The notes beneath the pieces were generated by a model. That model saw nothing but the letters and a program-made list of their open reading frames with translations. It searched no databases and was not told the DNA's origin. DNA of 595 nucleotides from Escherichia coli (lineage in GTDB: Bacteria > Pseudomonadota > Gammaproteobacteria > Enterobacterales > Enterobacteriaceae). Made by a program: the position numbers and the translations under genes. Numbering within the stretch: the stretch's first letter is position 1; every line of letters starts with the position of its first letter. Shown here piece by piece: positions 1 to 595 of the stretch. The DNA is taken from the NCBI RefSeq assembly GCF_003334255.1, contig NZ_QOWU01000217.1; one strand, written 5' to 3'.

Positions 1-68
1 AATCCGCTCCGTATACCGTGAGAGTGACATCGTACCGGGAGAACAGACAGCCATCAGCATACTGAAGC

Positions 69-90
69 AGCGCACAAAAAATATTGCGCT
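69..90. repeat. Inverted repeat AGCGCA / TGCGCT with a 10-nt A-rich spacer (CAAAAAATAT)
   Basis: Read directly: 69-74 AGCGCA is the reverse complement of 85-90 TGCGCT. Could form a stem-loop in RNA or be a protein-binding dyad. Function unknown. Confidence 0.35.
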
Positions 91-157
91 TCCACTTCAC
101 GTCCACCAGCAACAGCCCCCACCCCAGGAAAAGACGTTAGTAAGCATCGCCGTTGAT

Positions 158-170
158 CCGGAGTCTCCGG
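158..170. repeat. Inverted repeat CCGGAG-T-CTCCGG (6-bp arms, 1-nt centre)
   Basis: Read directly: 158-163 CCGGAG is the reverse complement of 165-170 CTCCGG. Lies about 40 bp upstream of ATG 209. No T-tract follows, so it is not an intrinsic terminator. Confidence 0.5.
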
Positions 171-200
171 CTCAGTACCTCCAGCGCCAGAAACCACAAC

Positions 201-208
201 GGGAAGAG
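201..208 (+). promoter_or_regulatory. Putative ribosome-binding site for the DUF1364 gene
   Basis: Purine-rich GGGAAGAG directly upstream of ATG 209. Spacing is short (about 4 nt from the GGGA core) and the match to the AGGAGG consensus is imperfect. Confidence 0.4.
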
Positions 209-478
209 ATGCCTGTATACACGCGCTGGGTAAAAACGCAGAAATGCATGACGTGCGGTAATCAGGCAGATGATCCGCATCACATCATTGGTCATGGACT
301 GGGAGGGATGGGAACAAAGGCTGACGATTTGTTTGTTATTCCGTTGTGCCGTAAATGCCATAACAAACTACATGCCGGAGTAAAAGATTTTGAAGAAAAA
401 CACGGCAGTCAGCTGTTGTTGCTGATTCGTTTTTTAATGCACGCGAGAAATTCGGGTGTTCTGAAGTGGAAAGCATAA
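209..478 (+). CDS. DUF1364-family (YbcO/NinX-like) small Cys/His-rich phage protein, putative zinc-binding HNH-like nuclease; 89 aa, complete if the ATG at 209 is the true start
   Basis: ORF-track ORF ATG 209 to TAA 476-478. Translation has CxxC (C13,C16), DPHHI (H24,H25), a Gly-rich GHGLGGMGTK segment and LCRKCHNKLH (C47,C50,H51,H55). From memory this resembles E. coli DLP12 YbcO (GTKPPD / IACSACH region), which sits immediately upstream of rusA in that prophage. Purine-rich GGGAAGAG at 201-208 is a possible Shine-Dalgarno. Start is uncertain because the frame is open upstream to position 2. Confidence 0.75.
   Translation: MPVYTRWVKTQKCMTCGNQADDPHHIIGHGLGGMGTKADDLFVIPLCRKCHNKLHAGVKDFEEKHGSQLLLLIRFLMHARNSGVLKWKA
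466..473 (+). promoter_or_regulatory. Putative ribosome-binding site for rusA, embedded in the 3' end of the upstream CDS
   Basis: Purine-rich GTGGAAAG with a GGA core about 8 nt upstream of ATG 479. Together with the TAA-ATG abutment this is consistent with translational coupling. Confidence 0.4.
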
Positions 479-595
479 ATGACCGAACGCATAGAATTTG
501 TTTTGCCTTACCCGCCGACGGTGAACACTTACTGGCGACGCCGTGGCAGCACATATTTTGTATCAAAAGCCGGGGAGCGTTATCGCCGGGCAGTG
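479..595 (+). CDS. rusA: RusA-family crossover junction endodeoxyribonuclease (Holliday junction resolvase), N-terminal 39 codons only; continues beyond the 3' window edge
   Basis: ATG at 479-481 immediately after the TAA of the upstream gene. Translation MTERIEFVLPYPPTVNTYWRRRGSTYFVSKAGERYRRAV matches the recalled N-terminal pattern of E. coli RusA (LPWPPSNNRYYRHNRG...VSAEGQAYRDNV): the LP-aromatic-PP-x-x-N, Y-aromatic-R-x-x-RG, VS, G-x-x-YR and V positions coincide. Not in the ORF track because it is truncated by the window end. Confidence 0.85.
   Translation, partial: MTERIEFVLPYPPTVNTYWRRRGSTYFVSKAGERYRRAV

Follow-up and report, generated by a model that had tools for sequence, protein, structure and literature searches.

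The stretch of DNA analysed here (hereafter the window; 595 nucleotides from Escherichia coli) is identical (100%) to positions 6001-6595 of a prophage locus of E. coli G1/2, which we refer to as L001. By megablast, 13 E. coli chromosomes carry the window at 100% identity, while 2286 of 5426 complete E. coli genomes, and additionally 15 phage records, match at least 80% of its length. The coding sequence matched was in every case annotated as 'DUF968 domain-containing protein' or 'YdfU family protein', and RusA followed it. The host element is a lambdoid E. coli prophage, and the gene belongs to its early-right operon, where the order in L001 is hokD, two genes present in L001 only, a 90-aa ORF, the YdfU-family gene, rusA and Q. 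The arrangement beside rusA and the gene for the antiterminator Q is the same in L001, L002 and L005-L012, and a rusA/Q prophage context has been described for His-Me finger group 7 (PMC5714182). The features of the window, all on the plus strand, are as follows.

1-478, plus strand: YdfU-family (DUF968) coding sequence, the 3' 478 of 1059 nt (RefSeq, ORF list and translation).
2-94, plus strand: end of the mostly helical middle domain, codons 195-225 (IRSVYRESDIVPGEQTAISILKQRTKNIALPL; model, DUF968 match and pN/pS).
95-145, plus strand: Gln/Pro-rich flexible interdomain linker, codons 226-242 (HVHQQQPPPQEKTLVSI; pLDDT <50).
146-208, plus strand: conserved N-terminal arm of the C-terminal nuclease module, codons 243-263 (AVDPESPAQYLQRQKPQREE; K258, D246 and P257, pLDDT 75-94).
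209-211, plus strand: ATG that is the internal Met264, not conserved as a start (Lys or Asn in other alleles; weak anti-Shine-Dalgarno pairing).
209-475, plus strand: predicted C-terminal HNH / His-Me finger nuclease domain, codons 264-352.
479-595, plus strand: 5' part of rusA (Holliday junction resolvase), annotated by RefSeq as RusA family at L001:6479-6859 (translation MTERIEFVLPYPPTVNTYW...).

When the window is translated, frame 2 is free of stops from position 2 to the TAA at 476-478, a run of 158 codons that reads ...HVHQQQPPPQEKTLVSIAVDPESPAQYLQRQKPQREE before reaching the Met at 209-211. The other two forward frames first terminate at TGA 19-21 (frame 1) and TGA 63-65 (frame 3), and no ATG, GTG or TTG was found in frame within positions 2-208. 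On each of these points the preliminary description of the window, which was made from its letters alone, was correct. When the window was shuffled 20,000 times, frames open from the edge over at least 69 codons turned up in 3.0% of the shuffles, and frames open over at least 158 codons in 0.005%. The 69 open codons by themselves are thus only mildly unusual; the open frame as a whole, at 158 codons, is not due to chance.

The reason for the open frame becomes apparent once the window is placed in its locus. RefSeq annotates a coding sequence at L001:5420-6478 (WP_187002331.1; 1059 nt, 352 aa) in frame with frame 2 of the window; codon 194 ends on window position 1 and codon 195 starts on position 2, so that residues 195-263 come from positions 2-208 and Met264 from the ATG at 209. 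The frame runs open to the edge solely because this edge falls within a gene. Following the frame upstream for a start codon with a ribosome-binding site, as had been suggested, led to a GTG at L001:5420, 581 nt upstream of window position 1 and behind TGGAGGTAAC. Both the GTG and the preceding TGGAGGTAAC are present in 11 of the 11 loci compared, and the GGAGG Shine-Dalgarno sequence at this GTG is strong and conserved, even though the N-terminal parts of the 11 alleles that share it are just 71-98% identical at the nucleotide level. Pairing with the anti-Shine-Dalgarno sequence at the 3' end of 16S rRNA was calculated at -10.6 kcal/mol for the GTG, compared to -4.3 kcal/mol for the ATG at 209 (approximately the 25th percentile of positions within this coding sequence) and -3.3 kcal/mol for the rusA ATG. 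We infer the GTG start from this conservation and from the Shine-Dalgarno sequence; the GTG and the 352-aa length are annotation-pipeline calls that are kept across diverged alleles.

We are thus all but certain that the open frame at the window edge is the middle of an annotated 352-aa YdfU/DUF968 prophage gene. As this gene is already known and annotated, the observation is an ordinary one, a window-edge effect; the result corrects a misreading and in itself matters little. It does carry a general lesson, namely that an ORF with no start codon between the window edge and its first ATG is to be treated as truncated.

Independent of annotation, the alleles of the gene bear on whether positions 2-208 encode protein. 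Among 11 alleles, pooled pN/pS was 0.29 for codons 195-263, 0.13 for codons 2-194 and 0.30 for codons 264-352, with a value of 0.12 for residues 195-222, and the variable sites in codons 195-263 fell 18/17/37 on the three codon positions, an excess at the third. Within 2-208, the indels that separate close alleles are solely 3-nt gaps in the QQQPPP run, forming a block 6 columns wide near window position 110. Additionally, Pfam returned a single match to DUF968 (PF06147) covering residues 161-344 (E 5.9e-62, model positions 2-169 of 171), which runs across position 209 and takes in all of window 2-208. PHROG 96 matched residues 1-349 at E 1e-161, and the 69-aa translation of 2-208 matched the same family by itself at 6.4e-14. 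NCBIfam contained no family for the full protein or for the 69-aa segment, and gave for the 89-aa ORF that starts at position 209 only a sub-threshold IscB HNH match. Rfam gave no match to an RNA element in the window at E<=1.

Homologous proteins extend these observations. Among the closest protein clusters, 120 in number, almost every one is 352 aa long, and 26 representatives from a set clustered at 50% identity (320-370 aa, 28-50% identity) align with the protein from end to end. K258 never varies in 35 full-length homologs (24-49% identity), and at least 90% of them keep D246 and P257; all three residues are encoded inside window 2-208, within the motif VDPEPPAxxMxRPKxxRW. Judged by these comparisons, positions 2-208 are coding and under in-frame purifying selection.

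The layout of the protein was examined with AlphaFold, using the alignment of 35 sequences as input. The model has a mean pLDDT of 87, with residues 226-242 as the sole long segment below 50, and its pTM of 0.57 leaves the arrangement of the domains relative to each other undefined, as would be expected for domains on a flexible tether. The window opens in the end of the middle domain, which includes a predicted helix at residues 211-220 and, within codons 195-225, an ExD motif that is partly conserved in distant homologs. The linker that follows varies in length and sequence and carries large indels among distant homologs. The preliminary description had proposed a start upstream of the window and an N-terminal extension with a Gln/Pro-rich linker; the upstream start and the linker (residues 226-242) were both found, but 'extension' understates what lies ahead of the ATG at 209, as 263 of the 352 residues precede this codon and the 89-aa ORF represents the C-terminal domain only. 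Between the linker and this domain lies the conserved arm. The C-terminal module also occurs by itself in three short homologs (P0215, P0231 and P0204), which begin just before the VDPExPA motif of the arm and so place the boundary of the module at about residue 240 and not at Met264.

The C-terminal domain carries the motifs CxxC (276, 279), DPHH (285-288) and CxxCH (311-315) and has the beta-beta-alpha-metal core of HNH / His-Me finger nucleases, with the catalytic His ending the first strand. In the window's allele the two zinc-site pairs are C276-x2-C279 and C311-x2-C314, of which C276 is invariant, and these CxxC-type pairs are predicted from the sequence to form a structural zinc site. 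Two allele types exist for the C-terminal part, with 35-80% nucleotide identity between them, and they differ in the fourth zinc ligand: type A, to which the window belongs, has CRKCHN, while type B has CRKHHN or CREHHN, where the CRKHH or CREHH stretch places a His at the position of the fourth Cys. Searches of PDB sequences yielded nothing at E<=1 with the protein and nothing at E<=10 with the 35-sequence profile. The resulting domain map offers boundaries for constructs, comprising the middle domain, the 226-242 linker, the arm with D246, P257 and K258, and the HNH core.

For the N-terminal ~160 residues, no relative was found in Pfam or the PDB. This part (residues 1-160, L001:5420-5900) matches PHROG 11007, a family of unknown function. 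C93 and C118 are invariant in it and W119 and D122 nearly so (consensus CQ...LCWHHDN), and a beta-hairpin at 105-118 followed by a helix at 119-125 is predicted. This part may contain a second zinc/beta-beta-alpha-like element in degenerate form. An Orf-like N-terminal domain, as suggested for DUF968 proteins of Gram-positive phages by comparison with lambda Orf (PMC4118853), is not supported for the enterobacterial protein, as hhalign of the family profile against lambda NinB/Orf gave a probability of 0.07%.

Two other accounts of positions 2-208 had been put forward with the open frame. According to one, they are a non-coding leader, of 145-190 bp in the preliminary description, and the true gene is the 89-aa YbcO/DUF1364-like ORF that begins at the ATG at 209. 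This ORF is indeed near YbcO (96 aa) in length and homologous to it over residues 274-348, there is no start codon in frame within 2-208, and databases contain some short proteins homologous to the C-terminal module alone. The leader is nevertheless refuted because 2-208 shows purifying selection with a third-position excess and holds residues that are invariant or nearly so in homologs down to 24% identity, and because a single DUF968 match crosses position 209. Homologs uniformly starting at the equivalent of Met209, which had been named as a sign that the upstream part is not coding, were not observed; full-length homologs align end to end across this position, and P0215, P0231 and P0204 start upstream of VDPExPA instead of at Met264. 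Met264 itself is missing from other alleles (Lys in K-12 YdfU, Asn in other type-B alleles) and position 264 is unconserved among distant homologs. The Shine-Dalgarno sequence at this ATG is weak, and no sigma-70-like promoter was found in the window. We consider a leader extremely improbable. The second account had a different upstream gene ending at one of the two other-frame stops (TGA 19-21 or 63-65), with frame 2 open by accident. Both stops exist and 69 open codons arise in about 3% of shuffles, but the idea fails because the sole upstream gene on the forward strand, the 90-aa ORF, ends at L001:5418, 583 nt short of the window. In the extended locus, neither of the other two frames has a forward ORF of 60 aa or more that extends into the window, and the selection signal and the family matches are all in frame 2. 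To this account we attach practically no probability at all.

It could further be asked whether type-A alleles make dual use of the gene, expressing the 352-aa protein together with a free 89-aa HNH domain by internal initiation at the ATG at 209. This codon sits just past the conserved arm and about 10 residues ahead of the first zinc-ligand Cys, with the purine-rich GGGAAGAG directly ahead of it, and the free domain would resemble stand-alone YbcO. Were this the case, the linker region would be both a recombination junction and a control point for protein isoforms. Met264 is confined to type-A alleles, however, the Shine-Dalgarno pairing is unremarkable (25th percentile of the coding-sequence background) with no spacer before the ATG, and the product would be devoid of the D246/P257/K258 arm, which the three stand-alone homologs keep. 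Internal initiation therefore appears very unlikely, and the reading of 2-208 as the interior of one 352-aa coding sequence is the one followed below.

With the gene defined in full, its family assignment could be revisited. The preliminary description had labelled it a DUF1364 gene. Pfam instead gives DUF968 both for the full protein and for the 89-aa ORF by itself (model positions 91-169, E 3.1e-37), and neither query matched DUF1364 (PF07102) at E<=10. The profile match, collinear similarity to YdfU of E. coli K-12 and the prophage context all place the protein in the YdfU/DUF968 family. The YdfU encoded by the Qin prophage of K-12 (b1560, NP_416078) is 77% identical to it over 348 residues with 0 gaps, and the two genes are alike in length (349 vs 352 aa), in the GTG start with its Shine-Dalgarno context and in lying upstream of Q; both proteins have the three-part layout, in which a Q-rich linker is combined with an HNH motif at the C-terminus. 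K-12 YdfU differs in carrying a type-B C-terminal allele (CRKHHN, Lys264, 3 residues shorter), whereas the window's allele is type A (CRKCHN, Met264), and Qin is without the rusA that follows the window's allele.

The relationship to DUF1364 is more distant. YbcO of the DLP12 prophage, a DUF1364 protein, stands alone at 96 aa and has neither the N-terminal and middle domains nor the linker, and compared with the roughly 90-100 aa of stand-alone DUF1364 proteins the present ORF encodes 352 aa, a start at the ATG at 209 being unsupported. The C-terminal domain nonetheless shares a fold and remote homology with YbcO (PDB 3g27): residues 274-348 align with it at an hhalign probability of 82.7%, while BLASTP finds a single 30-residue stretch at 43% identity and nothing else. 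DUF968 (YdfU) and DUF1364 (YbcO) have been placed together in His-Me finger group 7 (Jablonska et al. 2017, PMC5714182). With this placement, the hhalign match and the position of the DLP12 YbcO gene immediately upstream of rusA, the DUF1364 label is an understandable one. The protein is a DUF968/YdfU member, and DUF1364 is a distant, superfamily-level relative of its C-terminal domain only.

Two further phage systems are relevant for comparison. The closest structural relative is Ref of phage P1, a RecA-dependent HNH nuclease associated with recombination (recombination enhancement function; PDB 3plw). Neither phmmer nor hmmsearch against PDB sequences detected a sequence match to it, and it is without the ~225 residues of N-terminal domains found in the YdfU-family protein. 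NinG/Rap of lambda is a nuclease encoded in the equivalent ninR interval, which separates the replication genes from Q; hhalign showed no meaningful similarity between it and the family (7% probability, confined to the CxxC stretch).

These features can be combined into an account of the gene and its product. The gene begins 581 nt upstream of the window at the GTG with its strong GGAGG site and ends at the TAA at 476-478, against rusA. In the polypeptide, the residues encoded by 2-208 run from the last helix of the middle domain through the disordered Gln/Pro linker to the conserved arm (VDPESPAQYLQRQKP), which leads into the zinc-binding HNH domain. The YdfU-family protein may act as a metal-dependent DNA nuclease in which the linker tethers the N-terminal and middle domains; these domains may target or regulate the HNH domain, either directing or restraining it, and the protein may work with RusA on phage recombination or replication intermediates. 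We infer a nuclease because the gene abuts rusA, occupies the interval that holds the DNA-processing genes of lambda (Orf, Rap) and encodes a protein whose closest structural relative is P1 Ref; this role and the cooperation with RusA are suggested by analogy, from the gene order, from the structural likeness to both YbcO and P1 Ref, and from the published placement of DUF968 alongside DUF1364 (PMC5714182).

At its 3' end, the TAA of the YdfU-family gene directly abuts the ATG of rusA (TAAATG, window 476-481). Together with the weak Shine-Dalgarno pairing at rusA (-3.3 kcal/mol), this junction suggests that translation of rusA is coupled to that of the YdfU-family gene. In type-B alleles, a gap of 12 nt lies ahead of rusA.

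Comparison of the window with the other loci (L002, L004-L012) showed the gene to be an intragenic mosaic whose junction falls in the linker region, at window positions 80-170 (L001:6080-6170). Up to about window position 100, the window's allele has 95-100% nucleotide identity to L009 (O104:H21); from about position 140, this identity drops to 55-68%. The reverse pattern is seen relative to L002 and L005-L008, with 71-90% identity over most of the N-terminal part and 94-100% from about window position 140, except for one block at 86-91%. Many genomes match window positions 1-168 only. The location of the exchange point in the linker region indicates that the N-terminal and HNH modules have been reassorted there.

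Several minor features of the window and its surroundings were also recorded. Two overlapping terminator-like hairpins with a T-run (CGGCAGTCAGCTGTTGTTGCTG and ATTCGTTTTT) lie at window positions 403-437, 40-75 nt before the stop codon; with two such sites found against 0.7 expected in shuffles, their presence in the coding region is probably due to chance. An antisense ORF of 74 aa with an ATG start (window 137-361, minus strand) overlaps the coding region for the linker and HNH domain and is unannotated in all loci fetched, and the repeats within the window comprise short matches in two copies, with no evident meaning. Elsewhere in the L001 prophage, a homolog of QueH (epoxyqueuosine reductase) is encoded upstream (L001:1797-2462), and Q is followed by a DNA methyltransferase gene and then by tRNA-Ile and tRNA-Arg genes (L001:8252-9512). 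In E. coli FORC 064 (L013:920-1985), the homologous gene is a pseudogene cut at the equivalent of approximately window position 90; after it come a TerB-family pseudogene, a DUF3927 gene and an IS66 element, which suggests a rearrangement.
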